64,000 nt of DNA from Mytilus trossulus (Eukaryota). The stretch lies in NCBI RefSeq assembly GCF_036588685.1, contig NC_086379.1, positions 62,930,001-62,994,000 of the forward strand, in the 5' to 3' direction. Both the position numbers and the translations under genes were made by a program. Under the pieces are notes generated by a model. That model was not told the origin of the DNA. It saw nothing but the letters and a program-made list of their open reading frames with translations, and did no database searches. Every line of letters begins with the position of its first letter. Within the stretch, counting starts at the first letter, position 1. Shown here in pieces: positions 1,925 to 62,845 of the stretch.

Positions 1925-2550
1925 TATCCAGGAGGTTTTATATGCATATTGACTAGTCTTATAAAGCGTAATTTGTTTAAAATAGGGGAGAAAGGTACCA
2001 GAGAGACAGTCAAACTCGTAGATCGAACATAAACTGAAAACGCCATGACTAAAAAACAAACAGACAATTAATAGTACACAGGACACAACATAGAAAACTA
2101 AAGGCTAAGCAACATTAAGATCAGAGAGAATTTAACTATTCATCAGATCATTAAATTTCATTTATTGAATAAGGTTGTATATCTTTTGAGAGCATTAGCA
2201 CCGTGCACTTCCTATCCCTTCACGACAGAATGAATAAAAAGCAGTGCATTATCGTATGCCATGGAAAAACAATAACACAAAACAGTATAACGACTATATT
2301 CTGTTAAAATCATCGCTCATAAAAATATACATAAAAATATATTAAGCTAAAGGATATCAAGGACATGAGTTACACAGGAGAGCCTACATGTATACTGACT
2401 AGTCTTATAGATTTGCATAAGTTGTTGAGATCAGAGAGAATTTTACTATTCATCACTTCATTAAATTTCATTTAATAAATTAAGTTGAATATCTTTTGAG
2501 AGCATCAACACCGTACACTTTCTTACCCTACACGACATAATGAATAAAAA
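1925..2550. repeat. Local tandem duplication; first copy interrupted by a family C insertion
   Basis: AGATCAGAGAGAATTT..ATGAATAAAAA at 2118-2240 and 2428-2550. Upstream TGACTAGTCTTATA at ~1950 and ~2396. Confidence 0.8.
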
Positions 2551-2821: not shown

Positions 2822-3116
2822 GAAATTAACGGTACCAATTTTCTTGCACCAGATGCGCATTTCGCCATTACATGTCTCTTCAGTGATGCTCGTGGCCAAA
2901 ATATTTAAAATCCAAAGCTTATATAAAAGATGAAGAGCTATAATCCAAAAGGTCCAAAAAGTATAGCCAAATCCGTGAAAGGAATCAGAGCTTTGCATGA
3001 GGGAGATACATTCCTTAATTTATAATAATTTCTAATATTTTGTAACAGCAAATTTAAATAACACAAAAAATCCGTATTTTCATGCCAGTACCGAAGTACT
3101 TGCTACTGGGCTGGTG
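2822..3116 (-). mobile_element. Retrozyme-like element, subfamily 2, partial
   Basis: Contains hammerhead 2846-2889. Distal end shares CCAGCCCAGTAG-CA-(C/T)ACTTCGGT with the main family. Confidence 0.65.
2846..2889 (-). ncRNA. Type I hammerhead ribozyme, second subfamily (CUGAAGA core, AUC site)
   Basis: Minus strand reads GCATCA-CTGAAGA-GAC(ATGTAAT)GGC-GAAA-T(GCGC)A-TC-TGGTGC. Stems I and III co-vary relative to the main family. One mismatch in stem II. Confidence 0.78.
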
Positions 3117-3454
3117 AGTATTTTTGATTTCTTGTCCGAAAACTGGAAAATCACAATTTTAGTAATTAATAAAAGGCCACAAATCTAAAATTTATCAATT
3201 ATCGAAGGGAGCTCATGTCAATATTATCATGTTATAAAATCAAATACATTCAACAAATCGAGAGAAAAAAACAATGAAAACTTCAGGCTTAAGAATCTGA
3301 TTGATTGTTATTTGGTAAATGTCCAGTGGCAAATGTTACATCCATATTTCGGGAACGATTATAGATCAACACGTTTACAATAGGTTTACCTTTAAAGGGA
3401 TCGACAGGGATTAAGGTCTGGTCACTTAGACTTTTGACATCTGGTAGTAACTGG

Positions 3455-5933: not shown

Positions 5934-6027
5934 ACTATTTTGATCTGAGCGTCAATGGTGAGTCTTGTGTAGATGAAACGCGCGTCTGGAGTATTAAGTT
6001 GTAAGCCTGGTACCTTTGAAAACTATT
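5934..6027 (+). mobile_element. Retrozyme fragment with mutated hammerhead, nested in dispersed repeat E
   Basis: Core reads ATGGTGA instead of CTGATGA. Ends ..GGTACCTTTGAAAACTATT. Confidence 0.7.
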
Positions 6028-6807
6028 AATTTCTTTCATTTTCTACATAAGAAAATGCCTGTACAAAGTCAGGAATGTGATAGTTGTTCATTCGTTTGCT
6101 ATGTTTGAGCTTTTAATTTTGACTTTTGATCACAGACTTTCCGTTTTGAATTTTCCTCGTAGTTCGGTATTTTTGTTATTTTACTTTGGGTTAAATTTCT
6201 AAAGACAATGAAAATTTATAGAGTATTATTTGAAATATAGGAAAATAATATACAAGTTTCATAAAATGCAAAATGATATAATCAACACCTTTTTTATCTA
6301 GTATGCAACAAAAAACGATTGAATACAAGAGGCATTTTGTTATTGAAACATTTGACCCACATACTGAGAGAGATTTTCTTCAATCAAAGGACTTTTTCTG
6401 TTTGATATGTAACACATACATCAATATAAACTTTATATATCTTAAACTGACAAACATCTAAGAATGAGCTTTTTTCCAATAAAAGTAAAAATAAAACAAT
6501 TGACGAAAATAATCCAACAAAACAAAAATGAAATGCAAACATATCGATTCAATATGTACATAAAAAAATCGTCACAGATTCAATTACTTAATGATAAAAC
6601 TTTAAAAATAAAGATAATGAATATTAAATCCGTCTTTAATATTTAAAACGAGAGTGAATAGTAATTATATTGCCATGAAAAATAAATGAATGCAAAAGTA
6701 ACATAACCAAAATACCGAATTCCAAGGAAAATTCAAAATTGAAAATCCGTTTTTTAAATTGCAAAACCAAACGACTAATGAAAAACAACTTTCATATTCC
6801 TGACTTG

Positions 6808-10200: not shown

Positions 10201-10416
10201 GAGTTTATTTATTCATTAATAGAGTGAACCACATGGTTTAAATTTTTAATCAAGAGAAAAAATTATCTAGTCCAGCAAATGTTTTATTAGAAAAGAGTAT
10301 AATCTGGTCCGAAGCGCATTTCTGGATTTACCTTTATTGGGTCAAAGAGGATGAAATATATTTGATATCCAATGACAACTTTGTACTTGTTTTGCTTTAA
10401 AACTATTTTGATCTAA

Positions 10417-10460
10417 GCGTCACTGATGAGTCTTATGTAGACGAAACGCGCGTCTGGCGT
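10417..10460 (+). ncRNA. Type I hammerhead ribozyme, intact core (predicted cleavage after C10454)
   Basis: GCGTCA-CTGATGA-GTC(TTATGTA)GAC-GAAA-C(GCGC)G-TC-TGGCGT. Stem I is GCGTCA/TGGCGT, stem II is GTC/GAC, stem III is minimal with a palindromic loop, and the triplet is GUC. Confidence 0.88.
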
Positions 10461-10757
10461 ATTAAGTTAAAATCCTTTTACTTTTGATAACTATTTACAC
10501 CATTGAGTCGATGCCACTGCTGGTGGACGGTTCGTCCCCGGGGGTATCACCAGCCCAGTAGTCAGCACTTCGGTGTAGACACGAATATCAATTATATGGT
10601 CATTTTTATAAATTTCTTGTTACAAAAACTTTGAATATTTTCGAAACTTTAAGGATTTCTTATCCCAGGAATATATTACCTTAGTCGTATTTGAAATTTT
10701 TGGTCCTCAATGCTCTTCATCTTTGTACTTGTTTGGCTTCAAACTGTTTTGATCTGA

Positions 10758-10800
10758 GCGTCACTGATGAGTCGTATGTAAACGAAACGCGCGTTTGGCG
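10758..10800 (+). ncRNA. Type I hammerhead ribozyme, second copy of the tandem pair (weakened)
   Basis: CTGATGA and GAAA intact. Stem II is GTC/AAC (one mismatch). GUU triplet ends at 10795. Confidence 0.72.
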
Positions 10801-11159
10801 AATTAAATTTTAATCGTGGTACCTTTGATAACTATATATAAGAACTGAAACAGGTAACAAGCTATATAACCAAAAATGGACATACCAGTACTAGTCAAAT
10901 CCTTGTATGGTCAACTTTTACAATTTTAAATCAAATGTCAAATCAAACACTGTAAAGTAAATAAACTAGTCCATGTAATGTTAAATCAAGAAAATGAACT
11001 TTCAGTTCTATCAAATATGAAATAAAGTGAGAACAATCTAGTCCAGGGTAAAACCAAATCCAGGAGTGGACTATCTTGTACATTGTATATTTAAACTGTT
11101 AAAATCAAAAGATTGAACCATCTACTTCTTAATGGATCAAAGTAAAGAGTAAATAATCT

Positions 11160-14885: not shown

Positions 14886-16394
14886 CGAAAATATGGTGTC
14901 TTGTTTTATACAATTTTTAAACAGTGATTGTCTGGTCTGTAAATTTTCCGAATGTGTCATAACTCCTATCACCATATTATTAATGTGTTTTGATTTGACA
15001 AACAGGATACGCTTACGAGTTCATATGACTCCAACACTTTTTAACTTGATTGATATATTGAAAATGGACTGACGAGTTTTTAACATCGGTATACTAAGAT
15101 TACCTCCTATTTAACCCCAATATCATATGTACTCCTGTCAAAAATCAATGTAACCAAGTAATTGCCGTTGCTAGTGTCTGACATATATTTAATTTCTTTT
15201 TATATTAAAAGCTAGATAAAGGCAACAGAAGTATACCGCTGTTTGAAATTCATAAATCGATTGAGAAAAAACAAATTCGGGTTACGAACTAAAACTGAAG
15301 GAAGCGTATCAAATATAAGAGAAATAAGACACAACAGACAACCAACATTACAATGTAACACACACAGAAACGAAAAATAGGGGTGTTATAAATAGTTCGA
15401 TTAATTATCTTCCCTGTGCCTATTAAATCTTAATATAAAGCATAAAGTATAGAATTTGCTGCTTATTGATGAAGGCTGTACAGTGACATTTCTACGTTGG
15501 AGTCTTTATTTTTTTTGAATTGGAATCTTATAAACAATTGTATCATATATAATTACTTTTATGAAGTTAACCATAACATAAAAAAATAACGAGAAACACG
15601 CATGGCTCATTGAATTTCGATACACCAATATATTTGAAGTATGCTTTTTCCCGAATTATAATTTTTTGTGGCTGGCAGTTAATAGGTTCCCCGTAGACTG
15701 TGAGTAATGTTTCGACAATATTATGCTTCTTCAGAATTGAACTTAAACTTTAACCGGAAGTCTTAAAAAGCGTGACACAGTTCTAATAATTCTAAAGGTT
15801 TTCTTCATTTTTAGGGCATTGAAGGTTATCAATCTCTATTAGTTTATCATGTTTGAAGAAATTGCAGACTTGCATAATTGATTTTTGTTTTCAACCTTAT
15901 GCATATTTTTCAATTTAGATCATAGCATATATAAATGAACACAATTAGAGGTAAACGGTTCTCTTTTCGTCGACGTTCAGGCAGTATTTGTAATTGCATT
16001 ATTGAATGTTAAAATTAGATTGATGCAAGAGCTTTTTATGATGAGGATAACTCCTTAAAAGAACATTGATTACCAATTTAGAATATGTTATTCATTTATT
16101 TACAAACCATAAGGGATTACACTTGTTTAATTTGTGATATATTAAATATCAGATTCTATTTGACTGTCAATTAGTTGTGTGAGGGTAGCTTTGCTTTGAT
16201 ATGTATGTGCAGATATTCTCCCGGAGGTTATCATATGCCTGGAAGTAAGCAGCACTTTATGTTGACACGAACTGTTATCGATATGATCATAATAACAAAT
16301 AAATTGATTACTCAAAAAAAAATATTTTGAAATAAGATATGCTTCCCCGGGAAAGGGTGAGCTTAGAATTCGGGTTCTTAATTCTAGTTTCATT

Positions 16395-16508
16395 GGTTCC
16401 TTATTTGGCCTTTTATTTTTTTTAGATTTGAGTGTCACTGATAAGTCTATTGACGAAACGCGCGTCTGGCGATCAAAATTTAATCCTGGTATCTATGATG
16501 TGTTTATT
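16395..16508 (+). mobile_element. Retrozyme fragment with mutated hammerhead (16432-16471)
   Basis: CTGATAA core, then GAC-GAAACGCGCGTCTGGCG. Ends ..CCTGGTATCTATGATG. Confidence 0.7.
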
Positions 16509-17581
16509 GATGCTATCATATCAGCATGATTCATTTGTAATAGTTTTCAACTAAATTATCGTTAACATTATATATTCGTGAAGTACATTTAATGCCTTAA
16601 GATTTTGAAAATGAGTTTAACCGTATTTTAACTTAACGTATTCATAATATCTATTTATTTTTCAAATCGTTGGAGGAGAGGGACAAGATGCAGTCTGTTA
16701 AGAGCAATTTAATCAATGATGAATTTGAAAAGAGTTCGTTAATATTGCAGCAGACTGTTCGTAAAATGTAAATTTCTTTAAAACTGATGAAATATCAAAA
16801 GGCAATCTCATTATACAAAGAATCACGGAGATTATCTTGCGAAGTTGTATTCCTCAATCCAAAACATGAACCGTTTAATTGTTTTGTACGTCGAAGTATC
16901 ATTCCGTGAAATGAAATGCGTGACCTAATTTTTTATACGAAACAACTTGAAAACCAAGTTAATCTATCTATCTAGAGAGTAAAAGCTGATGTTAAAACAG
17001 ATACCTAATATAAGACTGAATTTGGTTAAAAAACAAAACATAACGAATAACACTAACACAGTTTCGGCGCTAACATTAATAAGCTCTTTGAAAGCGCCAT
17101 AATTGCGATCGAGTTATTTTCATTTTCCAGCCACTGCTGTCCAAGAAAATAATTATTTGACAGTTGAAGTCAATTTTAGTTTTTAGTGTATTAAGTTAAA
17201 AAAAATATATTCATATATAAAGAAAAGATTATTTCCCATTGTATTCACTATAATAACTTGCTAGCGATTTAATATTATTTCTTGAAGTATTCAGTATCTT
17301 CTATAAGTATAAGCTCAAAACTATTGAGAAGTATTTCTTATATCGAAGATTAGGATTAAAAGTGTTGACATTTTTTCTGGTAAAAAAATAATTGCTAAAA
17401 CAGGTAGTATAAAGAAAGGTCTGGTATTAATTTTTGACGACTTTAAATCTAATCCTCCTGATTGCAACTGTGCAAATTCCCTATGCATAAGTTATCAGGC
17501 TATGTTACTAAGGGTGACCTTAAAATTGTCAACACTATTCTTTCAAAAAATATATGTTGGCAATAGATTATAAATACCGTG

Positions 17582-17890
17582 AAAAGTAAAATCACAAAAA
17601 TACTGAACTCAGAGGAAAATCTAATCGGAAAGTCCATAATCACATGGCAAAATCAAAATGACAAAACACATCAAAAACGAATGGACAAGAACTGTCATAT
17701 TCCTGACTTGGTACTTGCATTTTCAAATGTAGAAAATGGTGGATTAAACCTTGTTTTATAGAGCTACACTTCTCCCTTTGGTGACAGTCTTGTCATATTC
17801 TGTTATATTTACAATGATGCGTGCACTAAACAGGCATAATGAATACAATAGTCAAAATATGAGTACATCAGTCATCATCGTGTAACAATT
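17582..17890. repeat. Dispersed repeat family E (GTACCAAGTCAGGAATATGACAG..GAATTTTCCTCGGAGTTC)
   Basis: Other copies at ~5680-6188, 6697-6807 plus 7230-7305, 8150-8393, 25238-25367, 29460-29610, 34455-34770 and 44748-44889. Confidence 0.82.
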
Positions 17891-20800: not shown

Positions 20801-21407
20801 GCATGTTGTAAGAAAGTCTTATTGATCATGTAATTTTGATATGTAGAAAATTCCGTTGTATAAAAGAATAATTACATATCAATATTTCATGTTAAACAAC
20901 GATAAATGTCCCGACACGAACGAAATAACAACTTACCAGGAGTCTTATTACATGGTCCATACATTTATACAAAGTACAAAATAATCATTTAATTCTATCA
21001 TTCTAATGGTAAAAGGTCGAACAATGTAACCGAATATGTAGCTACTCATTCGAGTGTTATAGAATATATCTTTCTTCTTTGCACGAACTTCTTACGACTT
21101 AATATTTTGGAAAATTTAAAAAATGAAAAGATGTGAAAAATTAAAAGAAAAACATGCAGACAAAACATGTTACAAATAACTTATTAAAACAAAGACAGAT
21201 ACATGTACTCATTCATAAACAAATTCAATCAACAGAATATTATTATGTAATGCTAATCCCTAGAGTAATCGATACATTTTAACGAGATAAATACCGGTAT
21301 TGAATTTCACGATTGTCTTTTAGTTTAGATTGTGATATTTTTACGGAGTGTGTTTTGAATGGCTGTTGGTAGCTGCATAGAAGGAGATGCTGATTTGTTC
21401 CTTACAT

Positions 21408-21689
21408 CGTAACTACAAACCCCTTCCCTTTCATGAATGTGACCTACCGAATTAGACTATTTACTGGATTTGTTATCACATAAGCAACACGACGGGTGCC
21501 ACATGTGGAGCACCTGAGATCACCCCTAGTTTTTGGTGGGGTTTGTGTTGTTTATTTTTTGTTTTCTATGTTGTGTCATGTGTACTATTGTTTGTCCGTT
21601 TGTCTTTTTCATTTTTAGCCATGGCGTTGTCAGTTTGTTTTAGATTTATGAGTTTGACTGTCCCTTTTGGTATCTTTCGTCCCTCTCTT
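21408..21689 (+). mobile_element. Dispersed repeat family C (3' tail of a Penelope-like element)
   Basis: Near-identical inverted copy at 25491-25740. Diverged copies at ~1984-2112, 18140-18290, 20150-20335, 30165-30362, 31925-32060 and 49890-50110. Confidence 0.8.
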
Positions 21690-24471
21690 CTATCGAACCA
21701 ATTATTCTCGCTCCATTTGGTGTTCATGCTATTTAATAAGTTCATATTTGTTATTTTGATTTGTCTTGGTTATAGATTTATAAAATCAAAGCTTCTATTG
21801 TTTGAGTAAGTCCTATCTTACAATGACTCCGGCTGAATCAATTTTTGAGTAAATCCGATTTCCTCAGTTTTCATTTTACCTTACTATAAAAATTATGAGA
21901 TTTGAACATCGGTGAACTACTGTTACAAATTTACCCAAGCAATCCACTTGGATTTTCTCATTTTGTAGTTAATACGGTTTCATGGATTGATGAGATTAGG
22001 ACGTCGGCAAATATCTATTGATTAAATTTACCCTTTCCATGTTCACAAACTCGCACGTTTTGTATTTCGTGCGATTCCCTCGGTTTTCAGTTTTTGTATT
22101 TTACCTTAATTTGTATCTTTTTAATGGTTGCACTAGTATAAGATTTGAACATAGGTTCACTTCTGTTACACAAACTAACCAAGCCAATCCACCTAAATTT
22201 TCTTATAGTTTAGTTGATGTTGATACAATTTAATCAGGTCATGTTTTTACCTTGATTTATATCTATTTAGTGGATTTATCAGATTTGAAAAAATGAAGAA
22301 CTATTGTAGCCTCTACCATGTCGATGCACCCGGTTTCGCTCTATTTGTGATACGCGATATACCCGCAATTTTTGTATTAGCCTGGGAATATATCGTTTTT
22401 AATTGATTTATGAGGTTTGAACATTAGAAAACTACTGTCGTCACTCACTTAACTGATTGTAAGTAGAGATCATATAAGATTAAGTGAACAATGAAATATC
22501 AATAAAATTAATGAAAACACGTGAAAATAAAAATGAAAATTGGATTCAACAAAAGTATAGATAAAATAATAACATTGGTACTATTAACCATTCAGTGAAT
22601 TAAAATGAATAAACAACTTTTTTGTCAGACCAGCAAACATCCACAGTTACATCAAATGGCATATATATTCAAAGCCAAAGTGTCAAATCAATAGCAGGAA
22701 CGAATATAGCCAAATGAAGGGAACTAGAACTTTTCTGGAAAAACTAGTTTTCATGCACGGAAACAAGCCATATTACATAAATATGTCACATGCTGTAAGG
22801 TTATATAAATTTCAGTTCAGACACATGTTCAGTTCATGGACATTTATCAAAAAAATATTTGTTTTATAGATACCGGTAGCTATTTATCAAATACGAACCA
22901 GAAAATATGTTCATTGAATATATTGAAAATAATTTACATATACTAGTTGTTTGGATAATATTTATATAACTAAACTTTGTAAAAGATAGTATCAAAGTAC
23001 TCTGAGACATTCACATGTTTTCTACAATTTTCAGATTTGTTTTGTATGAGTTACAAAAATCGCATTCTTTCTCATTGACCATTGAACGGCAACGGATTCT
23101 TTGATTTATTGATTGGGAAGAAAGAAAAAAACAATTTACCATCATAAATCGGGGTGATTTTGTTACAGATCCTGCTTCTGATAAGAATCTATGTTTATGA
23201 GTTAAACACAAAAATCATGCTGGAACGGTCGACCTTCATCTAGTACCCGACAAACCATGGTACGATACAAATCTTCTAATATCTATATACAATGTTTATC
23301 ACGCTTGGTCATTTCATGCATTAGACACGAATCTAGCGTAGTAGTAACCAAATAAGGTAAATTCGACTAACTAAATTAAAATTTATCTTTATTTTGAAGG
23401 CCAATATTTTAAATGTCTTTTTTATTGTTTGGTGAAGTAATCGGTAATATAATCAAAAACTTTAAAGATATTATTGTGTAATGGTGTTATGTGATGGTTG
23501 TTTTCGCTGTACTGTCTGTAGACACTTGTTTTAACTTGAGATCATCATAATCTAGTTGGCCGGCCGTCCCCATAGAAAATAAAAGATGATGTAACCTTAA
23601 TAATTAAGAAAGAACAGTGTAGATTTTTCGAGACCCAACCTCTCAAGGTCATAATTTTGCTTTGGATTAGAATTGTATTTTATTGATGGAGTTCATTTTG
23701 TCTCTAAAAAATGCATTCATAACCTGAAAAAATCCATGTTAGTTTTTATTGATTTATGAGAATTAATGTAATTTAGAATAAATGTGTATTTTATATATAA
23801 AAAAAGAAGATTTATTTTAATACATCATCATTAGTTATATCTATAACTGTAAAGTAAGTCAAGTTTATTCATTTTCACCACTCCTCATTCTACATATTTG
23901 TAGAGGTACAGTGATTTATTAGATATATTTTTACACTTTTTTAAAGTTGATAAATTATGTTATTTATAATTAAACTGAGGGTTAACTATCTCAAACATTA
24001 CGATTTGTTTTTATATTTACTTTCGCTTAAGACAGAGTGAATTATCGTATGCACTAAAGAAAATTTACCCCTGATGCACCTTGAATTCGAAAATAAAAAA
24101 CGTACTATAAATCTTTAAAGTAGCAATCTTCAATTATAATTCTGTAAGACTTTAATTTAGGGGTTGTGCTCGAATGATGTCTGTCTTATTGGGTGTTCAT
24201 TTGTAGTTTAAGTCTTAACCCAGTCGGGAATTCTCTTTTGAATTGTTTCACGTGTTTTCTTACTGATGCATACTATAGCTTACTATCTATGGTATGTGTT
24301 TTGTGTATGTTGCAAGTATATAATATTGTTTGCATCCTCGTTGTGTTGGTCTCTAGTGGAATCTGTCTCGTTTGTTAGTCATATCACATATCTTCTTATT
24401 TTAATGTTTAGAAATAAGTATGTCTCATTTGATTTGTCGACCTGCAATCTTTTTGGGTTCATGACAATGTC

Positions 24472-24818
24472 CAAATTTGATGCCAATGCTTGTGGACGTT
24501 TCGTCCACAAGGGTATCACCAGTCCAGAAGTCAGCACATCGGTGTTGACATGAATACTAATTGTATGGTCATTTTTATAAATTTCAAGTTTACAAAACTT
24601 TGAATTTTTCGAAAAACTAAGGATTTTTTTATCCCGGGAATAGATTACCTTAGCCGTATTTGGCACAATGTTTTGGAATTTTGGGTCCTTAATACTCTTC
24701 AACTTTGTACTTGAAAGGCTTCATAACTATTTTAATCAAAGCGTCACTGATAAGTCTTATGTAGACGAAACGCGCGTATGGCGTATTTAATTATAATCCT
24801 GTTACCTTTGATAACTAT
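24472..24818 (+). mobile_element. Retrozyme-like element, about one monomer, mutated hammerhead (24741-24784)
   Basis: Colinear with 10505-10835. Core CTGATAA, GUA triplet. Confidence 0.8.
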
Positions 24819-25490
24819 ATATGACATTTTAATTTATATTTTAGAGATCAACAACATATATCTATTTGTACTACAAGTGTATGCAAAATGGTCAAATAAG
24901 TCAATTATGACCAAACATGCATATATAAGTTTCATTAAACCAGCCTTTTCGTTTTGATAGGTCTGAGGCTTAAGGGAACCCAAGTTAGATAATGATTTAT
25001 ATCTTAGTTCGGAAATCCTGATTCTTTCTGCAAAATTATATTGAATATCAATATGTATATATTCATTGGTCATATTACAAAAACAAATAGGGTATGATTA
25101 TCGGCAGAAAAAAACATTCTGCAAACGGTTGCATCGTAGCTACAACTGACCAAAATAGATTGCATTACTAATGTTAAGATGAACCAATGTGTTCAAGGTG
25201 GAAATACTGAATGTTATTATGTCTATAAAAAAAATATTACAAGTCAGGAATATGACAATTGTTATCCATTCGTTTGGTGTGTTTGAGTTTTTGATTTTGG
25301 CATTTGATTATGTACTTTCAGTTTTGAATTTTCCTCGGAGTTCATTACTTTTGTAATATTACTTTTCTGATGGCGTTGAAATAATCAAAAGGAGGATCTT
25401 TTTGAATAAGGCCGTCACGCATTAGAATATAAACGGTATAAAGAAATGGGAACGGTAAAAAATGAGGTGATAGACGATTTTGAATTAAAT

Positions 25491-25740
25491 AAAAGAGGGA
25501 CGAAAGATTCCAAAGGGACAGTCAAACTCGTAAATCTAAAACATACTGACAACGCCATGGCTAAAAATGAAAAAGACAAACAGAAAAACAATAGTACACA
25601 TGACACAACATAGAAAACTAAAGAATAAACAACACGAACCCCACCAAAAACTAGGGGTGATCTCAGGTGCTCCGGAAGGGTAAGCAGATCCTGCTCCACA
25701 TGCGGAACCCGTCGTGTTGCTTATGTGATTACAAATCCGG
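25491..25740 (-). mobile_element. Dispersed repeat family C copy
   Basis: Reverse complement of 21465-21689. Accounts for ORF-track hits 25415-25699 and 21543-21809. Confidence 0.8.
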
Positions 25741-29232: not shown

Positions 29233-29773
29233 TTCAAAATTTTAATACGCCAGAAGTGTATTTTGTCCACACAAGACCTACTAGTGCCGCCCAGATACAA
29301 AAGTACAAAGTTGAACAGCATCGAGGACCAAAAGATCAAAAAAGTTGTGCCAAAAACGGCACGGGTTTTCTAAACTACGATGTATATACTTTTAAATATC
29401 AATTGAAAGCACATAGTAAGATTGTGGATATGTTGAATGATAATGAAAAGGTATAGTCCATCAAAAATTTTAAAAATCAAATGACGACACAAGTGAAAAA
29501 AACAACAACTTCCATCTACATGAGTTGGTACAGGAATTTCCCGAAGAAAATAATTCGTTAAACCTGGTTTTATAGCTAGCTTAACCTCTCACTTGTTATG
29601 ACAGTTGAATAAGAGTTAGGTGATTTGAAGACATATAAAGAAGGTTGATAACTGGAGTTTGATCGATATTTTTTTTAAGTAAAACACGCGTTAAGGATGA
29701 AGCACACATGTACATTAAAGATACTCATATGCTCATGTATTATAACAAACCTTTCTATAATTATCCTGTATAT

Positions 29774-30050
29774 TAACTCATCATAAATACCAGGACTTAA
29801 TTTTTTATACACGCCAGACGCGCGTTTCGTCTACAAAAAGACTCATCATTGACGCTCGAATCCAAAACAGTTAAAAAAGCAAAATAAAGTACGAAGTTTA
29901 AGAGCATTAAGGACCAAAATTACTAAAAGTTATGCCAAATACAGCTAAGGTAATCTATGCCTGAGGTAGAAAAGCCTTAGTGTTTCAAAAATTCAAAATT
30001 TTGTAAACAGTTAATTTATAAATATAACCATATCAATGCTAATTCATGTC
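29774..30050 (-). mobile_element. Retrozyme-like element, partial, mutated hammerhead (29811-29855)
   Basis: Minus strand reads ATGATGA-GTC..GAC-GAAACGCGCGTCTGGCGT. Body is homologous to the other copies. Confidence 0.75.
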
Positions 30051-30604
30051 AGACCAAAAACGATACATTTGTGTAGTCTTGAATTTCTGTTTTCTGTTAA
30101 CTGAATTTTTATTATACATCTTTTTTTTTGGTCTTATGACCTAATGATTTTAGCTCTCAATTAAAAGAGAGAGAAAAATCATTGGTGGTCAATTCAAACT
30201 TTTATTACGACAAAAACAGACAACACAATGACAAAAAATGAAATCTACAAACAGACACAAATGATAACAAAACAAACAACAAAAAAACAATAAATATCAA
30301 ATAGCTAATAATCAGGACCAACAACAACACAAAAAACTGAGCTGATCTCGTGTGCTTCAGAAAATTAAAAAAAAGTTCTGCAACAACTCATTGCAAGTGA
30401 CATTACGGTGGAAAGTCGCACTCGGTAAAGTCTAATTCTAATGCAACAACGTTTGTAACGTTCATTTTGATTGGATAACGTCACTAATTTACATGGCATC
30501 AATTGACAATTGATGCTATCGGACGTACGCGCAAGCGCAGACGGCATATGACAGATTTTAAATGCATGTTTTAACGTTGTTTTCTGTCAGTTTCATTAGA
30601 ATGG

Positions 30605-30767: not shown

Positions 30768-32539
30768 TCTAAATCGAAGGAAATGAAATTGGCTTGTGGT
30801 TCCGATAAGTGGAACATATCCGTAGTAATATGCGACACAGATATTTTATATCGGTCAATCAAACCGTGATAGAACCTGTTTGTTTATAATGATCATATTT
30901 TATGTACCAATAAGAACGCAGAACGAAATGTAAGATTGTATCGTTTAATGTAATAATTCCTAATGACTCTACAAGATTAAATCATCAATAGTATGTTCAA
31001 GGCCACAACATAGATGAGGCAATGTATAGAATCTCGATAATCTGTGTATAGTAAACTATTTAAAGTTAAAATCGTCGTTATAAATGTAGCATTTGTGAAT
31101 ATCATTTTCTGACATTCAAAACATGCATGACATCAAATAAACAATTTAAAAATTAAACTGAAATGATAATGTCTTTAAAAGGGAACAAAATGGTACATTA
31201 GTGTTGCTTCAAGGTTATATCAACTTCATGTCTTTTTCTTTTTATTTACTTTTAATAGCGCTCGGAAATTAGAATTATTGAACACTAAATCATAAGTAAA
31301 AAAAATGGCAGTCAAACAGAACGTGCGAGTTGGATAATAATCAAGACATATCCGTCCATTCGGTTAACCTGATATTATGGGATAAGTACGAGTCTGAAAA
31401 GGTTAAAAATTAAAGAAAACCTTGTATACAATTTTATTACAAACTGAAACTCTGGAAATAAAATTTACACATTCGATCTATATGCCCCTTCGAAAAATTT
31501 AATAATCTGTACGTTTTACATATTTTAAGATGAGTGTTGCCTTGACATTTGTTGAATGGTAAATTTCGGACTTCTTGGCAGTAATTGGTCCTATTGGACA
31601 TGATGTCATAATGCATTCGTTTAAAATCTGTACGAAAAATAAGCTCCTTATCATCTGTATAAAAAGCTTATTTTAGATTTTTGGTCTTAGATTTCTGTTT
31701 GGAGTTCATATAGTTAAAATGTGGCAAGCAAAATTAAGTCCCTAGTTTCCTATAATGATCCTTTCTACCTACCGCTGTACCCTTTCCATTTGTTGATGGT
31801 TTACATAGAGCTCACACATTATTGTTCAAACTCCATTACAGTATGACTAGGGACATACATGTCCTTCTCTTGCATTTCTGTGGGAATTATTACAGATTCT
31901 TCTCAAGAGGACTTATGAGAGAAAAAGACAAGAAAGATACCAAGAACATATTTAAAAGTTAGAGGTCGTGAAAAACTGACAATGTCATGACAAAAACCGA
32001 AAGACGACAAAAGGATGAAGAAATTCACAATACACTCCATAGAAAACCAAAGACTGACCAAATTTATTCCTTCCAAAATCTGGGAATAATTTGGATAAAA
32101 AAAACTTACTCAATATTTGACCTCATCGTGGCGATCGTTCCTGTAATCAGCGATATAATTAGCTTGTTCGAATCACAGAACAAATAAACAATGATCATTG
32201 TAACATTCAAAAAGAAAAAAATACTTCTTTTATCCTCGAATTATCATGTATTGGAACTTCTAAATGTACTCAATTACCCAGTAATTTTATTTCATGGCTG
32301 CTAGCTATGACAAAAGTGTATTTAACTGGTACACTCTTTGTGCGTCACCTTGTTCTGTACCAGAAATAGAATATAGCTGATACAATTGGGTACTTTGCAC
32401 AGAGCGCCGTTGATGTATCAACCGTATTACTCAATTTATGACTATTAAACACCGGTATACTACTATTGTCTTAATCTACTCCTTATCGGTATTCTCCCTC
32501 TACTAACATTTTCACTTACTAGTTTTTTTTCCAAGAACA

Positions 32540-38100: not shown

Positions 38101-41094
38101 TACCATATATGGTAGCATATCGCCTACAGATATGTCCATTACAGGAGTGTAGTAAAAACAACTTTTATTGTTTCTAATTGTAATCTGTAATCAGATTATA
38201 TGCTTATATTACAATTTATTTAGCCTTTTGTATTCACACATCTTTTGATCGGTTTTTCTGTCGTTTTTTTCTATTCTTATATTCTGAGATGGCTAACATG
38301 TAACATTAGTACTATCTTATCGTGATTAAGTCTTCTTCTCTCGTCAATATATCATATTAAGATGACTAGACTTATTTATTTGAAAGGAATATTAATTCTA
38401 TTTACAATCAGATTAGTTTACGGACATGCAGTTATCAATTTATTTCAAAGTAAACAGCTTTTATTTGGTCAATAACTAGTTCTATATTTCATCTCATACA
38501 ATTTATGGAATTGGGTTAAAAATCAAGTGTTTGCAATTTGTTAATAGAAATATCGGTCTTTCAATGTTCTAGAGAGGTTTTATAACAAAATGTGTGTTAA
38601 ACAATATGATATAGACGGCAACGGCAATACCACACAACATCCCCAAAAAAAAAACAAACAAACAAACAAACTAAAGTTGATATATAGTGTTATGTTCTTA
38701 TTTATAAACTACTATGAAATGTTTAAAACTGCTTCATTAAAATGAATATAATAAAATAATAGTACCATAACCAACCCTTTATTTTTGCTGCTTTAACTGC
38801 AATATACAACTTTCAATTACCATTGGAAAAGTATGTCTATGATTTTTTTTAAACTGATGCCGATAACGCTTTATCAGAAGTTTAGTCTATAGTCTATTAG
38901 CAAATAGAAAAGTTGAAGTTTCGAACTTAAAAAGCGGACAAAATCTTGTTGTACACCTATGAAAGAGTTGGGTTTTCTTTGCATTTTGTGTTTTTTGCTC
39001 TACATGAAGTACTGATTTTGTGTCATGGATAAATATCCCATATCATTGCTTTTCAGCTATCATTTACGACTTTTCTACTGTCAATTAATAGTTGACTTTC
39101 TAGAATAACGAGTTAATTCTCACAACATCTTTTTTTAACGAAATGTACGGTATCATTCCATATGTTAATTGCATTTTTGTTGGTAAAGAGAATGCAAAAG
39201 GTTTATTATTATTGTTTAATATTTGAGACGAACCGTGTTCTAAAAGGTCTCCGCCGATTCACATGTTTTCTCTGTCCAAGGACAATAACCCAATTATTTT
39301 TGTTTGTATTTTAAAAAAAAAATCATAAATGTCCTACAAGAAATGTAGGCGTGAAATCGTTCACTCTGCCATTTTGAACATATTTTTCATTTCTAGGGGC
39401 ATTTTAACTCAAGTATAATTTTTGATTGGAACCCCTTACGCATTCAAGACTTTGCTGAAACAAAACCATTGAAGAAAATTTCATAAAAGTATAGGCTAGA
39501 GAGTGATAAAATGTTATTTCACAATATTTATATTTTTAACGGTATTTGTTTTTTCATCTTATAGCTTACTGATCGGCACTGCTCGTCTTTGATACAAATA
39601 ACGTCTACAACTTTACAAGATTGTTCGCGTGATGCTGAAATAATTAAAGTTTTAAAGTTGTGACCGTATGAATGATTATTCATGTCAACGGAGGAATGCT
39701 GACTACTGGGCTGCTAATAACATGGGGAAAACAGCTACCACTCAGTGGCCTCGACTGAAAAAAGTATATCAATGTTACCACACATAATGAAACTTATTGA
39801 GGAAGTAGGATTCCACCCGCAGGAATTTTTCAAAGTTTGTATCAGTAAGCGTTCAGACTTGTCTGAAAATATTGTTTATACGAATGTATTTCTATAGATC
39901 AAAAGTGTGGGAATTTTCTATTAAATCTTTTCCCTTGGCTTGATAGAGGTATTGATAAATGTTATAATTATGCTATTGTTTAAGTACTGTAGCTATTATT
40001 CCTTTAGAAGAAAGACTATGCTAGTCTTTCTGTATAATTTATGAAGTTGTTGAATTAAATCGTTTATGAAATTCATTAACCGATAATAGTGTAGGACAAT
40101 ACTATCACATCAGCAGATGAACACTCAGTGATAGCTTTCAGCAACAAAGAACTTTCATGATACGGTATCACATTGTTAATCATAAGTTTTTGTTTTATAT
40201 TTTTGTATGGTTGTACTCTTGGTTTCTCTTATACTGGTATTCTAGTTTAGAGTTAAGTGCCTTTCCGGACTTATTATGTGATGCAAATGGCATTCTTGAA
40301 CTAATCAGAAACCTCTGCGGTTGTTGTCTTGTGTTAATTCATTTGGTAATAAAAGCAGATTATTAACAATCTTTTCCTTCAATATCATTATTTAAAAAGG
40401 TTTCTTAAGGCTGGTAAGGTTGCAAACTTGTAAAATGGAGAAAAAAATGAAAAGTAAATTCAAAGAGTCCGTTTTATGCTGATGTGCAAGGCATTCTGTT
40501 TTTAGGAACTTATATCAAATATGCGATACATTAGAAATATATAAGTTAACAATCTAAAGTTTGAAAACATTTCCATAACCACATGGTCTGTGGTCTCGGG
40601 AAGCAAAAACGCAATAAGAATGGTTCGCTAAGGTATGTGTTGTCAGTCGTTGGACTAAAAGAAATCGTTCAAGAAAATGTCAGAAAAAACGCATAAAATC
40701 TACAAATTTTCACTACTAAATCCATCGAGGAGATTTAAGAAATATGGAAGATTTAATTACTTAGCGAAAGGACATATTTCGAAAGAAAAGAAATGAAAAT
40801 ATCCGCAAAAGGATCTAAATCAATAAATCAAACAGTAATTATAAAGATTTTACGCACCAACCTCATCTAAAGAATGAAACTATCATTTTAGATTTAATTT
40901 CAAATTTTAAATATGGTGTTGGTCTTAATTTGATAATGCTTACTCATAGTTTACTAAAACTAAAACGCATGGATTATGACTTTTAGTTCGAGTTTCATCA
41001 CTAACAAATTAATGATGACCGATTTTCAAGGAATGCAACTAGGAAGATCACCGTTTCAAGATATAATTATTTGTCTCTTAATTACAAAAAACGG

Positions 41095-43690: not shown

Positions 43691-43981
43691 GGTGTAATAA
43701 TAGTTATCAAAGGTACCAGGATTATAATTTAGTACGCCGCCAGACGCACGTTTCGTCCACATAAGACTCATCAGTGACGTTCATATCGAAATATTTATCA
43801 AGCCAAACAAGTACAAAGTTGAAGAGCATTGAGGATCCAAAATTCCAAAAAGTGGTGCCAAATACGGCTAAGGTAATCTATGCCTGGAATAAGAAAATTC
43901 TTAGTTTTTGAAAATTTCAAAGTTTGGTAAACAGGAAATTTATTAAAATGACAACATTATTGATATTCATGTCAACACCGA
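43691..43981 (-). mobile_element. Retrozyme-like element, partial, intact hammerhead
   Basis: Reverse complement of the 10570-10835 and 24540-24818 segments. Confidence 0.8.
43738..43779 (-). ncRNA. Type I hammerhead ribozyme, intact core
   Basis: Minus strand reads CGTCA-CTGATGA-GTC(TTATGTG)GAC-GAAA-C(GTGC)G-TC-TGGCG. Confidence 0.82.
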
Positions 43982-44524
43982 TTTGGTTTAATTCCAGCAA
44001 TAGCGTTAACGGTTGGAACTTTTCAAAATCAGGGACGGAATTTAACATATATTCAGTATTAAACTATTACCATTGGCATGTCCTGTGTAAATTCATCAAC
44101 ACGAATAGAGTGTCTTGTCTTTAGTGTAAGAAAAAAAAAACAATAAACAACGTTTTCCGGCATGAAACACATCTAAATAATGTGGCAATTCTGTGTACGT
44201 GGTTATGCGTCATGTCAGACAGTATCGTTTTACTGGAGGAAACTGTCAAAAAATACAAAAAGATTGTTAAATTATTTCAATACAACAGATTTATAATTTC
44301 ATACAGCGCCAATATTTGAAGTTTGTTCTGTTATGTCGAAAGTAAACTATGTAGTGATGAAACTTTTCAAAATGATCTTTTCTATACATTATCATCGAAT
44401 CGACATCAATTTGCAGAAAGATTTTGATAATCTCGTTAAAAGCCCAAATGATCAAGTTCTGTCAAGTATGACTTCTTCAAGTCTTGTATACAATATATCT
44501 TTTCATTTCTTATTAACAGAAATT

Positions 44525-46210: not shown

Positions 46211-47341
46211 ATTGAGCTTCTAAGATCGACACCTTATTTTCTAAATTTAACTGAATAAATTGAAGAGAAGAAAATCATAACTCATGAGAAAATAATCATA
46301 ATCATTTAATAAAAAAAAGGAGCTCATCATGCTTAAATAATTACTGAAGTTATTTTATACACACAATTTATCGTTCGATCGAATATCACTTATCAGGGCT
46401 TGTAATGTTTAATAACTAATTCCATTAGTTTCTGATATGAGTACATTATGGTCAACATTAGTGTTTTTAATTATACATGAACCCATTTATTTTCTACAAA
46501 CATCGCTAAATTGAATAGTGTTCTGATTAATTAATATATGTGTATGCATCCATATTTCCACAATAGTTATTCCTTGATGGTTTTTTTTTCCATTTAAACC
46601 ATTTTTTTGCGAATTTTGTACACTTCATGACTTATGATAATTAGATAAAACGATGCAGACAATATATCCTAATGATTGTATTCTATTTTAACATATATTG
46701 TCATATGTTTTATCGATGATGAGGTAGCTATCTAAATAAATGTTGTATATTACGACTGTTCCAGGACAGTCGTGGTGTTTCAGTGGAGAATGCATAAACC
46801 TTATTTCAATTTCGTCAGTCCAGCAAGCCGAGGTTTGTTTCCTGTAAAACCCGACATTTCAAAATCATAATAAGGCAAAAGAGGTTTTATGCTGATAAAT
46901 GTATTGTGTTGTCAGTCGCTGACTTTTACTCAATATATCTGTTTTTATATCTATAAAACTGTGTTATCAAGGAAATAAGAAATAGACACAGAAAAAGGCT
47001 TATTTATAAAAGTAACATAAATGAAAAAATAGTTTAAAAAAATGATTTCTACTTGTTAGGAAAATGTACCTGTTAAACGCTTTGGGTTTGCAAGTTCCAA
47101 TGTTTTTTTAGTTGTTATAAAATCAAGCAAAAGTTAGTATGATATTATAACTTGGGCATGAACCTCTCCTCTTCTCGTTTTCACAAGTGACTTTCCAATT
47201 GAACCAATATTGATTAAGCTCAGCAAAATAGAAAAACTTCTGCCATTACCTTGTTCGTTAAAAATGTATACAGAGCACTTTAACAATTACATCTTGTAAA
47301 GAAAATACAGCAATTAAAATGGATCGTGCCAAGATTAAATA

Positions 47342-47536
47342 TTTCTTATCCCAGGCATGAGTTACCTTAGCCTTTATTTGGCACAACTTTTTGGAATTTT
47401 GGATCCTCAATGCTCTTCAACTTTGTATTGTTTTGGCTTTATAAATATTTTGATATGAGCGTCACTGATGAGTCTTATGTAGACGAAACGCGCGTCTGGC
47501 GTACTAAATTATAATCCTGGTACCTTTGATAACTAT
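47342..47536 (+). mobile_element. Retrozyme-like element, 5'-truncated, intact hammerhead
   Basis: Homologous to 62650-62840 and 24628-24818. Ends GGTACCTTTGATAACTAT. Confidence 0.82.
47459..47502 (+). ncRNA. Type I hammerhead ribozyme, intact core (predicted cleavage after C47496)
   Basis: Identical 44-nt motif to 10417-10460. Confidence 0.88.
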
Positions 47537-49889
47537 AGGTTGATATCTTCATACTCATCAGATTCAAATTAATCAACCGTAAAAGACTAAGGTGAACACA
47601 TGAATTTTACGCTGTGAATGTTTTATGGAAAGAAACAACCATCGCATACTGTATGCACAAACAAAAGTCATATTAGTACAGTAAACTTGACACATAGACA
47701 TCTCCAGTCTAGTCAGAAGACTTCTTCAGAGGAGGGTGTCTGTCTAACAGTTAAATCAATAATAACAGTCGATCAGAAGGTAAACATTTATTGAATGTAT
47801 ACTCAAGTTATCAGACAGTGCCAAGTCTCATTTGTTTTAAGTAGTCCCTTTAAACCCCATGTGCCCTCAGAATCGAACAATTGATTGTCCTAATTGTGGC
47901 TGAAATAATAGACACAGGACGTAAAAAAATAAATGCACTTTACTTTAAGCAGTCTGCAGGGATACATAATTCTGTATATATGATTTTTTGCCAGCCATCA
48001 GATTTTTCGGTCATCTGAGTTCACAGCACTTCAGTTCTTTGATAAGATAAAAATAAAAGCACAAACTTAAAACACTTAACTATCCAATAAATCAAATCAA
48101 ATTAAGCAAGAGTTTGTACAAAAATGTGGTGCATAAAAAATATAAAACAACGCTTTTCATTAGAAAATATGTTCGACACCACAGCAGTTTATATTTATAA
48201 AAATACTTAAGAAAACTAATTTATTTCTGGCTTGATCGTTTTTACAAGGGGTCTTTATAAACTTGAGGACGGTTGTCAAAACATAGACCTGAAATTTGAT
48301 ACGGTAGATTGCAATGGTCAATGAAACAAACAACCTAAGCATTAAAAAAACAGTTGTGGAATATTTCACCAATGAGACAGCAATCCAACAATGAACATAA
48401 CCTGCATAGACAACATGATCAAAAGTCTATCAATTTACTTTTTATAACATGTCAGTTATTAATTTGACAAACGCGATTTTTTTTCATATATCAATCTTTT
48501 CCGTTCATTAATTCCTTTTTCGTTATGATTACAAAGAATTTTAGACAAGATTGAAATACACATTGCATTTTATATTTACTTTAAAAACAGGGAAATAAAA
48601 CCGACAAACTATTACTACAATAGCTTCAATTTTAAAACGCAGCCAATATAGATTTGATTTCCTTCTGATAAATAATATCATAAATCAATTTCACTGAAGG
48701 CGTTTGATATCAAACAAAGATAATACAATTGGATTTATCCGAATACTTGAAAAGTATGGAAAAGAGCATCAGCTTCGTTCTAAGTAAACTACAAGCAATA
48801 TCTCCATGGGAAGAAGGCACCAAAGTTCTACTGAACATCCTGTTTACTGCTCACTTGCCGCTGGGATGCAATTATAATCAACAATATTCTAAGGATTCAT
48901 TCCCTATGACTGATAATCAAAATAGCTAACATTGAATTAATATAAAGGTTTAGTTGCTATAAGAGTCTTGAGAAAGCTGCATATCATCATCTTCAGAACG
49001 TATTTATACATCATTTCTATTATAAAGGTCTGACACAAATTAAAAATTGATTTTTGATACAGATAACATAAGGAACGGCAGTCTACGTGAGGACATTACC
49101 ATCAACAGATGCCGGATTTATTTCCGAGTAATTAAAACTACATTTTCTGTCTTTAAATGCACGACATCTTTCAACTAAATGCTTAATGAAGACTAGATAA
49201 TATTTGTTGACACGTTATTACAGTTAATAAGTAAGCTAGTGTGAAAGACACGTATGGAACGCCGTACGCTCTGTTCATTGTGAATGGTAACTGCATAGTG
49301 CTTTTATGCCTGGAACAAAACGATAGCCTCCTACATGTTGGCATTTCAAAATCTTGCCATCAAATTAGGTGCGATATCTTTAAAAGATTGAATGCACAAC
49401 CTTATCTTGTAATGTTTTCCTGTAACTAGAAAAAAATATTTAATTAAAATAAATAATCATTATAGTTTTTTCATCATGAAGAATCCAATTGTCTCTAAAT
49501 TATTCCACTATTTTTATTTAGTCAAAGAAATTGTAAAGTCAGTAAATCGTTTACGTTTTCTCATATACTCGCTGGATTTAAAGAAGTATTTTGTTCGATT
49601 TCCAACGGCGTTCATTAGCTTCAAATCAAAGTGCTTGTAACATTTAAACTGACAAGCGAACTACATTACTATTCATGAACATGCAATAATGCCGAAGTCT
49701 TTGACACTTGAGTGTACGAATGGTGTAATTACGTAATGTAAGGGTAGGTAAGGAAACGTCAAAATTTGTCTTCTCTGTATTTTAGCATCGATGTTATACA
49801 ATATAAGGCAGGTTCCATTGTTGTTGGGTTTTTTATGTGTTTTTTATTGGACAAACAACAACGTATTTTAACGACTTATCTACAAAAGA

Positions 49890-50680
49890 CAGGCAGACAC
49901 AAACATTGAATATTAAAACTAAAAAGGGACAACGTCATAGCAAAAAACGAAAAACAACAAAAGACAAACAGTCAACACAATGTGAAAAACTCATAACTAG
50001 GCAACAAGCACAAACATCATCTTATACTAGGGAGATCATAGATGGAATGGTAAGAAGATCCTGTTATTCATGCCTCCACTATGTGTTGCTCCTTTAAGTA
50101 CAAATCCGGTTATGTTGTATTCGAACGGAAAACGAAGCAATTATAATTCCGAAATCGAAACTTATCTGTGGTAATCTGTTAAACACAGGCTTAACAACGA
50201 TCAAGCGACTCATGATGATTATCGTAAATTTTTTCGGTGAGTTCAATTATACAACTTTGACCCTTTGGTTTAATAGCTTGCTTGTAAGCAGCAATGCTAT
50301 ATCAAATATTCCAAGATACGAAACACAATTAATTAAAAGTAAATCACGATAAGAGGCAGTCCTAACTGTCTCTGTTATATCCTTCATTTCAATTTCAATA
50401 TTATAAATGCATTCAACATACTCACCAAACTTTGAAACTTTGAAAGCTAGTTACATTTCATTCTTTCTAAGAAACTCCTGTATGCAGGCTGACTCATATG
50501 AACAAAGGAGCAAGTCCACAAAAGGAGGACCACGATTGATTACCAATTGCTTGTTTTAGTGGGTTTTTTTCTCCGTGCGTAACAAATATGTTGTCAATAA
50601 AACATCAAGTATAATTATTGAAAACTCCAATGTCAGACAATTGTTTAAATCAGAGAGATTTTTTTCAAATTCTGAAAATA
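49890..50680 (-). mobile_element. Decayed Penelope-like retroelement: RT C-terminal relics plus 3' tail
   Basis: Minus-strand peptides PPFVDLLLCSYESACIQEFLRKNE, FGEYVECIYNIEIEMKDITETVRTASYRDL and LLLTSKLLNQ..KFYDNHHESLDR, followed by a diverged family-C tail. Clade assignment is from recall of molluscan RT consensus sequences. Confidence 0.68.
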
Positions 50681-51401
50681 CCGCTCTAATACAAAGTAAA
50701 CGTTGACCATTTGTTTTTATGGAAAAAGATCCGACCGATTCTATCAATCTATCTTTGAATTTGTAGTGAAGAATACTTTGTAAAGGTATGGTTTAATGTT
50801 GTGTTTCTGTTGTGTTGTAGTTTCCCTCTTATATTTCATGCGTTTCCCTCAGTTTTAGTTTGTAACCCCGATTTGGTGTTTTTCTCTTAAGCGATTGATG
50901 AATCTCGAACAGCGGTATATTACTGTTGACTTTATTCACCATTGCAAGATCAAATAGACTTAGATTGTAAAGATTTTTTGTATCTTTGAATCTTTTAACT
51001 ATGAACATTCGTATTACTCCTAGAGTATGTAGTCTCATAATTATCCTCCAAAGCCCAAGATTAACAGACACGATAAAGATGGATAATACATATAAAGAAT
51101 AATAGTTATCACTAAAAAATATGGACAGTACTACTAACCATATCAATTCGAAACTTAAAACCTCTGGAAAAAAAACCAGAATTGCAAAAATAACGAACCA
51201 CGGAAAATTAGGGGCGAAAATAGTTTACATTTATGTAAGATACTATCTTTGTTACTGCTTTTAGTAAACATTATTCAGCACAAGCATAATCTCAATTTAC
51301 AGTTACTGAAAATAATGAGTCATAACGTCCTATTTATGTTTTTAAAGTTTATGTTTCATGTGGTCGTTATAATCATAACAGTTAATTTTATTGAATATTT
51401 A

Positions 51402-62537: not shown

Positions 62538-62575
62538 CAGAGACGTATATACACATATGTGTATATATGTCTCTG
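62538..62575. repeat. 38-bp near-perfect palindrome
   Basis: CAGAGACGTATATACACAT|ATGTGTATATATGTCTCTG, one mismatch. Flanked by GCTATAG and GTTATAG. Confidence 0.85.
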
Positions 62576-62582: not shown

Positions 62583-62845
62583 TCAATGTGGTTATTTTTT
62601 ATACATTTCCTGTGTACAAAATTTTGAATTTTTCGAAAAACAAAGGATTTTCTTATCCCAGGCATAGATTACCTTAGCCGCATTTGGCACAATTTTTTGG
62701 GAATTTTGGTTCTTCAATGCTCTTCAACTTTTTACTTGTTTGGCTTTATAAATATTTTGATATGAGCGTCACTGGTGAGTCTTATGTAGACGAAACACGC
62801 GTCTGGCGTACTAAATTATAATCCTAGTACCTTTGATAACAATTT
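62583..62845 (+). mobile_element. Retrozyme-like element, partial, mutated hammerhead (62766-62809)
   Basis: Core reads CTGGTGA. Otherwise close to 47342-47536. Confidence 0.8.

Follow-up and report, generated by a model that had tools for sequence, protein, structure and literature searches.

The question raised by this locus is which enzyme moves the retrozymes of animals, and which feature of their RNA is recognised by a Penelope-like reverse transcriptase (RT). In Mytilus galloprovincialis, transcripts of non-LTR retrozymes cleave themselves and build up as circular RNA, and the same authors proposed that animal retrozymes are moved by Penelope-like elements (PLEs) (Cervera and de la Pena 2020, PMC7229834); a link between retrozymes and PLEs has also been argued from pseudo-LTR (pLTR) homology in Xenopus (Li, Clavereau and Pollet 2026, bioRxiv 10.64898/2026.07.22.740005). 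A first-pass annotation of the stretch studied here had proposed that the 10-mer TGGTAYCTTT, placed at one fixed distance from the 3' ends of the retrozymes and of a repeat called family C, is the cis signal by which such an RT recognises both RNAs. The proposal was followed up in the window, that is, the whole stretch of 64,000 nucleotides of Mytilus trossulus DNA (GC 31%), in host DNA within public metagenome and MAG contigs, and in the contigs of four runs, of which X1 is possibly the window's own sample.

The retrozymes are units with a type I hammerhead (RF00163), which was located at five sites of the window with a best score of 33 bits against a gathering score of 34 (E 2e-4); at the gathering score itself, Rfam gave no match in the window. 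Two RF00163 hammerheads are also carried by locus L039. The spacing of the hammerheads, and hence the unit size, is 341 nt in the window and 355, 350 and 343 nt elsewhere, in non-coding tandems. The copies in the window are listed below, the box being the junction element described further on.

10289..10839, plus strand: partial retrozyme tandem with a 341-nt unit, hammerheads at 10417-10460 and 10758-10801, junction at about 10497, box, and 10-mer at 10817-10826.
24465..24818, plus strand: retrozyme copy starting within the box, with a sharp 3' end at 24818 (contigs, covariance model).
47335..47537, plus strand: 5'-truncated retrozyme, hammerhead at 47459-47502 and 10-mer at 47518-47527.
43699..43985, minus strand: 5'-truncated retrozyme, hammerhead at 43734-43780 and 10-mer at 43709-43718.
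62585..62845, plus strand: 5'-truncated retrozyme.
5934..6028, plus strand: short retrozyme end, 10-mer at 6008-6017.
29769..30051, minus strand: copy of retrozyme subfamily 3, hammerhead at 29811-29855.
16363..16510, plus strand: end of retrozyme subfamily 3.
2822..3117, minus strand: copy of retrozyme subfamily 2 starting in the last stem of the box, of the same family as tandem L048.

The retrozyme 3' end at 24818 is sharp, with 642 contigs of run X1 and 432 of run X2 leaving there into AT-rich, unrelated flanks. A 38-nt palindrome (62538-62575) lies directly before the 5' end of one retrozyme copy.

The suggestion that family C is the tail of an RT-encoding element was borne out by the Naiad locus L040, in which a family C end, the box, an unbroken 1000-aa endonuclease-RT frame and a family C 3' UTR follow one another. 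The locus opens with 148 nt of the family C end (98% to 25488-25635), its 3' UTR is 99% identical to 25559-25740 of the window, and its 3' end is thus repeated upstream of the ORF, as in a pseudo-LTR. On this comparison of sequences, family C is identified as the pseudo-LTR and 3' UTR (the end repeat) of an autonomous Naiad PLE. Pfam placed GIY-YIG at 135-172 (E 0.037) and, C-terminal to it in the same ORF of L040, RVT_1 at 645-854 (E 1e-4), both below cut-off; in the relative L057, GIY-YIG scored above the Pfam cut-off. A zinc-finger-like CxxC upstream of the endonuclease, a KR-rich block, CxC, GxKY and DKA were all readable by eye in the L040 translation, on motif definitions taken from the description of the Naiad clade (Craig et al. 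2021, PMC8557442), and likeness to the published Naiad proteins was likewise judged by eye. That description gives the clade the features seen with family C, namely an N-terminal GIY-YIG, zinc-finger-like motifs, CxC, DKA, pseudo-LTRs and no canonical hammerhead, and reports very high copy numbers of Naiads in bivalves (PMC8557442). A pattern scan found no hammerhead in L040 (both strands), L053 or L057. Family C differs from the published Naiad_Mgal, the end of which corresponds to another family of the window (17581-17883). The tails and relics of both are as follows.

21392..21689, plus strand: 5'-truncated family C copy with the last Naiad ORF codons and 3' UTR, 86-95% to the L040 ORF end, 3' UTR and pLTR.
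25490..25740, minus strand: family C copy, 98-99% to L040, with one private change in the 10-mer.
1979..2114, minus strand: copy of a family C subfamily, the best match to the retrozyme end (end comparison).
31918..32061, minus strand: older C-like tail keeping the 10-mer at 31933-31942 (sequence comparison).
49914..50785, minus strand: decayed remnant of a Naiad RT (50238-50785), the diverged C-like tail of which (49914-50109) lacks the 10-mer (tblastn).
17581..17883, minus strand: tail of a second Naiad family, without the strict 10-mer, matching the 3' end of the Naiad_Mgal consensus (by eye) and L053.

Family C had also been described as physically joined to RT relics. The relic is real, having been identified through the L040 protein (50238-50777, E 7e-17), but the tail beside it is only 66% identical to family C and lacks the 10-mer; in a homolog search with the decayed relic, 0 of 241 candidates scored. 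The family C 3' end at 25490 is sharp, 524 contigs of X1 and 361 of X2 leaving there into unrelated AT-rich flanks, and, with regard to the 30-40 bp tail and (TA)n target bias of Naiads, the loose ends are AT-rich with an agreement of about 0.4, no common tail being resolved in the contigs. Contigs of two runs guessed to be RNA cover both the retrozymes and family C, contigs as such being silent on expression, strand and circles. An alignment hinted at a decayed hammerhead in the family C tail, but BLAST gave this no support and the idea was rejected.

Direct joints between the two families were also seen, from a family C end to a truncated retrozyme (21686 to 24757; 3 and 2 contigs) and tail-to-tail between a retrozyme end and family C (24818 to 25490; 10 and 2 contigs). 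These may fit insertion of the families at each other's ends, and are possibly repeat artefacts.

Several other repeats occupy the window. A nearly whole LINE-type element on the minus strand (55540-61376), unrelated to the retrozyme finding, has a 491-aa ORF1 with an SGNH/GDSL-like domain, an AP endonuclease lying in two frames and an RT frame of 908 aa. A 74-bp tandem of about 20 copies, 95% alike, lies at 11077-12560, with related 37-bp repeats at 9800-10050 and 12700-13030, and an inverted repeat of 163 nt with 61-nt arms, 95% complementary, at 30605-30767. A third tail family (9106-9351 on the plus strand and five more copies) has a block in common with the 3' UTRs of Mgal- and Bpla-type Naiads and GGTAT about 20 nt before a T-rich end, and is probably another Naiad tail.

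The ends of retrozymes and family C had been taken to match within otherwise unrelated sequences; in fact, a far longer element is common to both and follows directly after the end. This element, here called the box, is a predicted three-stem structure of ~60 nt at the 5' ends of Naiads, which is found also after the retrozyme end in tandem units and has a core made up of CTGCTGGTGGA, a short loop and TCCCCGAGG. It was noticed through the likeness of published Naiad consensus starts to the sequence following the retrozyme end at 10497. The order common to both element types is 10-mer, T-rich end, a linker of 7-10 nt and box, with genomic copies stopping at the T-rich end. Three copies of the box were located in the window.

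10495..10571, plus strand: junction box right after the retrozyme 3' end, three nested stems at about 10502-10559 (81% identical to L040 over 63 nt; 82.4 bits, this copy being one of the model's training sequences).
24465..24540, plus strand: box found by the model.
39693..39753, minus strand: decayed box with the outer stems only (16.9 bits, E 0.06; outside the training set).

The majority letters of the run contigs at 24486-24528 shift the damaged copy of the window back towards the box. When four retrozyme units were compared with four Naiads by BLAST, the box was the sole strong match (63-69 nt, 87% to L040, E 1e-17 to 2e-19); between retrozymes and the 3' UTR of L040, BLAST at word size 7 and E up to 1 gave no match, and the anchored test described below found the 10-mer only. 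Affinities of the boxes were counted on 38 columns free of the search pattern. The five mussel-type retrozyme boxes agree with family C at 29-32 of the 38, with the Mgal type at 21-24 and with the oyster type at 15-17, while the box of the distant retrozyme L027 (24 for the C type, 23 for the oyster type) makes no choice. As to the autonomous partner that the annotation had hoped to identify, this comparison of boxes points to a family C-type Naiad as the best candidate for the partner of the mussel retrozymes.

The box extends well beyond these loci. An exact search for CTGCTGGTGG in the supplement of Naiad consensi (PMC8557442) gave 12 matches, 11 at starts or junctions and one internal; with one line-broken and one variant case added to the 11, the box occurs in 13 of the 54 published consensi, by eye in nine bivalve, three hemichordate and one toadfish element. 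Among 20 Naiad starts viewed, two of coral have a shorter form, one is doubtful and four are without it. The box is visible in these consensus files, and no mention of it was found in the text of that paper as available to us (PMC8557442). A box pattern scan of genome contigs gave nine loci (three chance, six host-derived), and one of metagenomes gave 25, three of them by chance; three of the remaining 22 enter Naiad ORFs, and a hammerhead core (by pattern) lies within 520 nt in eight of the 22. A further search returned 40 loci, four of them host-derived and the others judged chance by title, and another returned five, two already known. Matches to the loose box pattern in viral contigs (24) were rejected as chance coding matches, none being scored by the model at E 0.1, and the viral contigs had no match to the hammerhead pattern, a second box pattern or Naiad protein. 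The box was also considered as coding sequence and rejected, the open frame of L040 starting only after the box; the oyster-type frame runs through it.

Some box-bearing loci are unusual in themselves. Locus L025/L026 (G001:C10:12549-14334) is a 74-bp tandem of about 24 units consisting of box and linker only, which begins at a retrozyme end, lacks hammerhead and 10-mer within the unit, and is distinct from the 74-bp array of the window. In L043 and L050, inverted pieces of retrozyme stand beside the boxes, an arrangement also seen in PLE insertions. Animal retroelement DNA was found inside bacterial genome records (L025-L028, L032, L033, L059-L064, L095 and L128), and the bacterial record G002 holds a full Naiad frame of 1019 aa.

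The structure of the box was assessed on an alignment of 22 rows (20 of 27 loci and two window copies); the loci excluded were the satellite, one that nearly duplicates another, four with truncation or rearrangement, and the Mgal type, which carries an inserted hairpin. The three nested stems are paired in 93.5% of 417 cells, against 30-52% for slid controls, in a structure drawn from the same sequences and with inner stem and core columns largely fixed by the search pattern. Changes on both sides occur in 8 of 19 pairs (shuffles 3.4 +/- 1.2, none of 500 as high), in an uneven alignment where 12 of the 22 rows come from one family and most double changes from four rows. RNAalifold gave nearly identical stems, and in the published consensi the outer stems also pair, by eye, with different sequences. 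Single copies mostly fold no better than shuffles (z -0.4 to -0.6 at 10470-10600, z -4.4 at 24470-24580). The covariance model gave mostly 48-103 bits for AT-rich host loci, 33-38 for partial copies, 20 for the Mgal type and 20-22 for chance GC-rich matches, with none of the 24 phage loci matched. Rfam had no match over the box in five loci (E up to 1) or in the window (E up to 0.5), and ARAGORN found no tRNA in five box loci. In some Naiads (L053:120-246 and, by eye, the published Mcor, Mgal, Skow-1 and Mphi starts) an extra hairpin stands between the middle stem and the invariant core, giving a layout that we take to resemble, loosely, a type III hammerhead with an altered core.

We put at roughly 0.55 the probability of the main reading, namely that family C is the end repeat of a Naiad and that the retrozymes share its junction, likely the site at which the Naiad enzyme binds RNA and starts reverse transcription. 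The best candidate for the cis signal would be the structured box past the end, rather than the 10-mer, and it is likely through the box, more than through the 10-mer, that retrozymes borrow the Naiad copying enzyme. As retrozymes code for nothing, the element that they retain must act in cis. With the hammerhead cutting about 40 nt before the junction and the product then circularising, the end and the box would be contiguous in every monomer, so that each circle would hold the two together. The family C Naiad protein would bind the box, nick AT-rich DNA and copy the RNA lying 5' of the box, giving products with a fixed 3' end and ragged 5' ends, sometimes of more than one unit; the 10-mer would likely be a minor determinant near the start site, or have been captured along with the box. 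This is supported by the shared sequence and order, by 3' ends that stop sharply 7-10 nt short of the first stem, by the compensatory changes and by the intact partner ORF. Since the box is common to all four Naiad families compared, another or an unseen family could be the mover, and since the box of a solitary Naiad stands only behind the upstream repeat, full-length copying would need a tandem or a template jump.

The box might instead be an internal promoter or 5' leader kept for retrozyme transcription, with RT recognition lying elsewhere. The published consensi open with it, it precedes the ORF by 10-30 nt, internal promoters have been described near the pLTR boundary of Penelope and Chlamys-3 (PMC8557442), and retrozymes are strongly transcribed (PMC7229834). 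However, a DNA promoter would not be expected to show paired changes in two long-range stems, as a structure formed by a single strand would, and a role in translation cannot account for the box in non-coding retrozymes; we regard this explanation as rather unlikely.

The original proposal, that what the RT chiefly reads is the 10-mer close to the 3' end, has a real observation behind it. The motif was located as claimed, at 21668-21677 (plus) and 1991-2000 (minus), the latter with C before it.

21668..21677, plus strand: 10-mer TGGTATCTTT, 12 nt upstream of the family C 3' end.

Exact matches to TGGTAYCTTT number seven in the 64-kb window, against a shuffle mean of 0.34 with none of 100 shuffles reaching seven; four are at retrozyme ends (6008, 10817, 43709 and 47518) and three at family C or C-like ends (1991, 21668 and 31933), so that they represent copies of two families and not seven independent events. 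In run X1, position 24802 (retrozyme) reads G in 1,954,511 of a depth of 2,122,222 (92%) and position 25509 (family C) reads A in 4,799,774 of 4,847,910 (99%), X2 agreeing in both cases. The 10-mer is, as had been supposed, part of the consensus ends of both families, the majority letters of the contigs restoring it in X1 and X2, and the deviating 10-mers of the window copies are private changes.

Other parts of the proposal did not hold. The end lies 9-10 nt after the motif in retrozyme copies and 12-13 nt in family C (12 nt at 21678-21689, where the annotation had omitted two bases), not at an equal distance of ten, and the subfamily 2 end (2828-2837) has only TGGTACCGTT, with a likeness to family C at chance level (p 0.47). 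An end-anchored similarity score was used for such comparisons, with 3,000 real T-ending stretches of the window as the null; its p values are post hoc, uncorrected and optimistic, the motif having been chosen from the same sequences. Retrozyme subfamily 1 gave p 0.012, 0.0007 and 0.078 against three family C copies and 0.74 against the older C-like copy at 31918, subfamily 3 gave 0.005 against family C, and a deep-sea mussel retrozyme gave 0.011 and 0.056 against two of its C-type Naiad tails; the junction loci L039 and L040, with a private change in each, gave 0.32. Three other repeat ends gave p 0.07-0.95, two further controls anchored at the wrong end being disregarded. The match with family C is modest, with p about 0.001-0.08 for the main pairs. 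Among 21 hammerhead cores picked by pattern from 28 loci and the window (one row cut by a contig end, divergent cores missed by the pattern), the strict 10-mer follows two and the loose TGRTAYC 11, the background of the latter being 1.4%.

Between family C and the deep-sea mussel C-type tails, the 10-mer is kept while the next five bases differ, although other 3' UTR blocks of these tails are kept equally well. It is absent from the retrozyme family L036, which has a mussel-type box, from the distant retrozyme family L027 and from the oyster-type Naiad L057, the 3' UTR of which aligns with family C and stops before the motif, and the Mgal and Bpla Naiad types have a weak variant at best. The published Naiad consensi have no 10-mer at the 3' end, three internal matches only and no match to GGTATCTTC, a weak negative because line breaks can mask matches and family C is not among them. 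A conserved fold of the 10-mer region was looked for and none was found. The 10-mer is thus a real, but local and degenerate feature; it lies a variable 15-19 nt upstream of the box, which is far better conserved, and with its degeneration across retrozyme subfamilies and the absences just listed, its role as the principal recognition signal appears decidedly unlikely.

It is also conceivable that the retrozymes are end repeats of an unseen, hammerhead-bearing PLE with the same box and are moved by that element, not by family C. There is a precedent in Xenopus, where retrozymes match the pLTRs of PLEs (bioRxiv 10.64898/2026.07.22.740005), and the retrozyme body has no match in any of the four Naiads compared. 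Nevertheless, in every unit long enough to judge, the hammerhead is reached about 200-265 nt or less after the box, and none of these units leads into an ORF, and the four long ORFs found behind a box (L040, L053, L057 and L095, the last a further full Naiad) are all Naiad-type, the three scanned lacking a hammerhead; we regard such a mover as improbable. Least probable of all is that the box is an undescribed self-cleaving ribozyme cutting at the junction in place of the hammerhead absent from Naiads, as might be suggested by its small multi-stem form, invariant unpaired core, optional hairpin in some families, sharp ends just upstream and lack of an Rfam match, since mussel retrozyme RNA forms intact circles of 350-400 nt, with only hammerhead cleavage reported in the text (PMC7229834; the clones being presumably of these families), and cutting again some 40 nt away would linearise the circle.

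The main reading, of a junction shared with a Naiad, agrees in part with known systems. The retrozymes of M. galloprovincialis likewise have a type I hammerhead, tandem units of ~350 nt and two similar ribozyme families; unlike here, the accessible account names no partner family and mentions neither a shared end nor a link to Naiads, and the correspondence of its clone sequences to ours is presumed (PMC7229834). The Xenopus study also treats retrozymes as non-autonomous PLE relatives that share sequence at PLE termini, but it is vertebrate-centred and its main text names no mollusc, Naiad partner or cis element (bioRxiv 10.64898/2026.07.22.740005); compared with that case, the partner here is without a hammerhead and only the junction is common. 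Chlamys elements such as MRC1 are non-coding, arranged head-to-tail, and share terminal sequence with an autonomous PLE having an N-terminal endonuclease (PMC8557442). However, it is 3' ends that they share, whereas retrozymes share the partner's 5' end (3' of the junction), on a hammerhead-processed unit. In vitro, the protein of the Anolis PLE Poseidon nicks AT-rich DNA, begins reverse transcription at an internal position of the RNA and depends on RNA lying 3' of that position (Frangieh et al. 2024, PMC11167929). The internal start near the pLTR-ORF junction, the requirement for downstream RNA and the AT-rich targets are all similar to what is proposed here; Poseidon differs from Naiads in belonging to another clade and having a hammerhead, and its binding motif was bracketed to the first 172 nt of the ORF (PMC11167929). 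To judge by titles and abstracts, the literature searched contains no link between retrozymes and Naiads and no description of the box or of the 10-mer, although subscription journals and Repbase/Dfam could hold one. That PLEs move retrozymes was already proposed; a hammerhead-less Naiad as the partner, together with the box, was not found in the searched literature.

A broader interpretation, which we offer tentatively and hold somewhat less probable than not, is that the box is an undescribed structured RNA of Naiads in bivalves, hemichordates and a fish, and in looser form in corals, that would anchor their telomerase-related RT and fix its start just upstream. Bivalve retrozymes would be chimeric parasites that combine this anchor with a hammerhead, whereby a small circle comes to serve as the whole template for a hammerhead-less element; the smallest version would be the 74-bp box satellite. 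A partner from a PLE clade without hammerheads was not to be expected. With an intact candidate enzyme in the family C Naiad, a minimal template of ~345 nt and a ~60-nt element with natural compensatory variants, both the enzyme that moves animal retrozymes and the RNA feature recognised by a Penelope-like RT become testable in vitro. The RTs of PLEs are the closest relatives of telomerase RT, and a defined anchor RNA would thus bear on how the template is held in that family.
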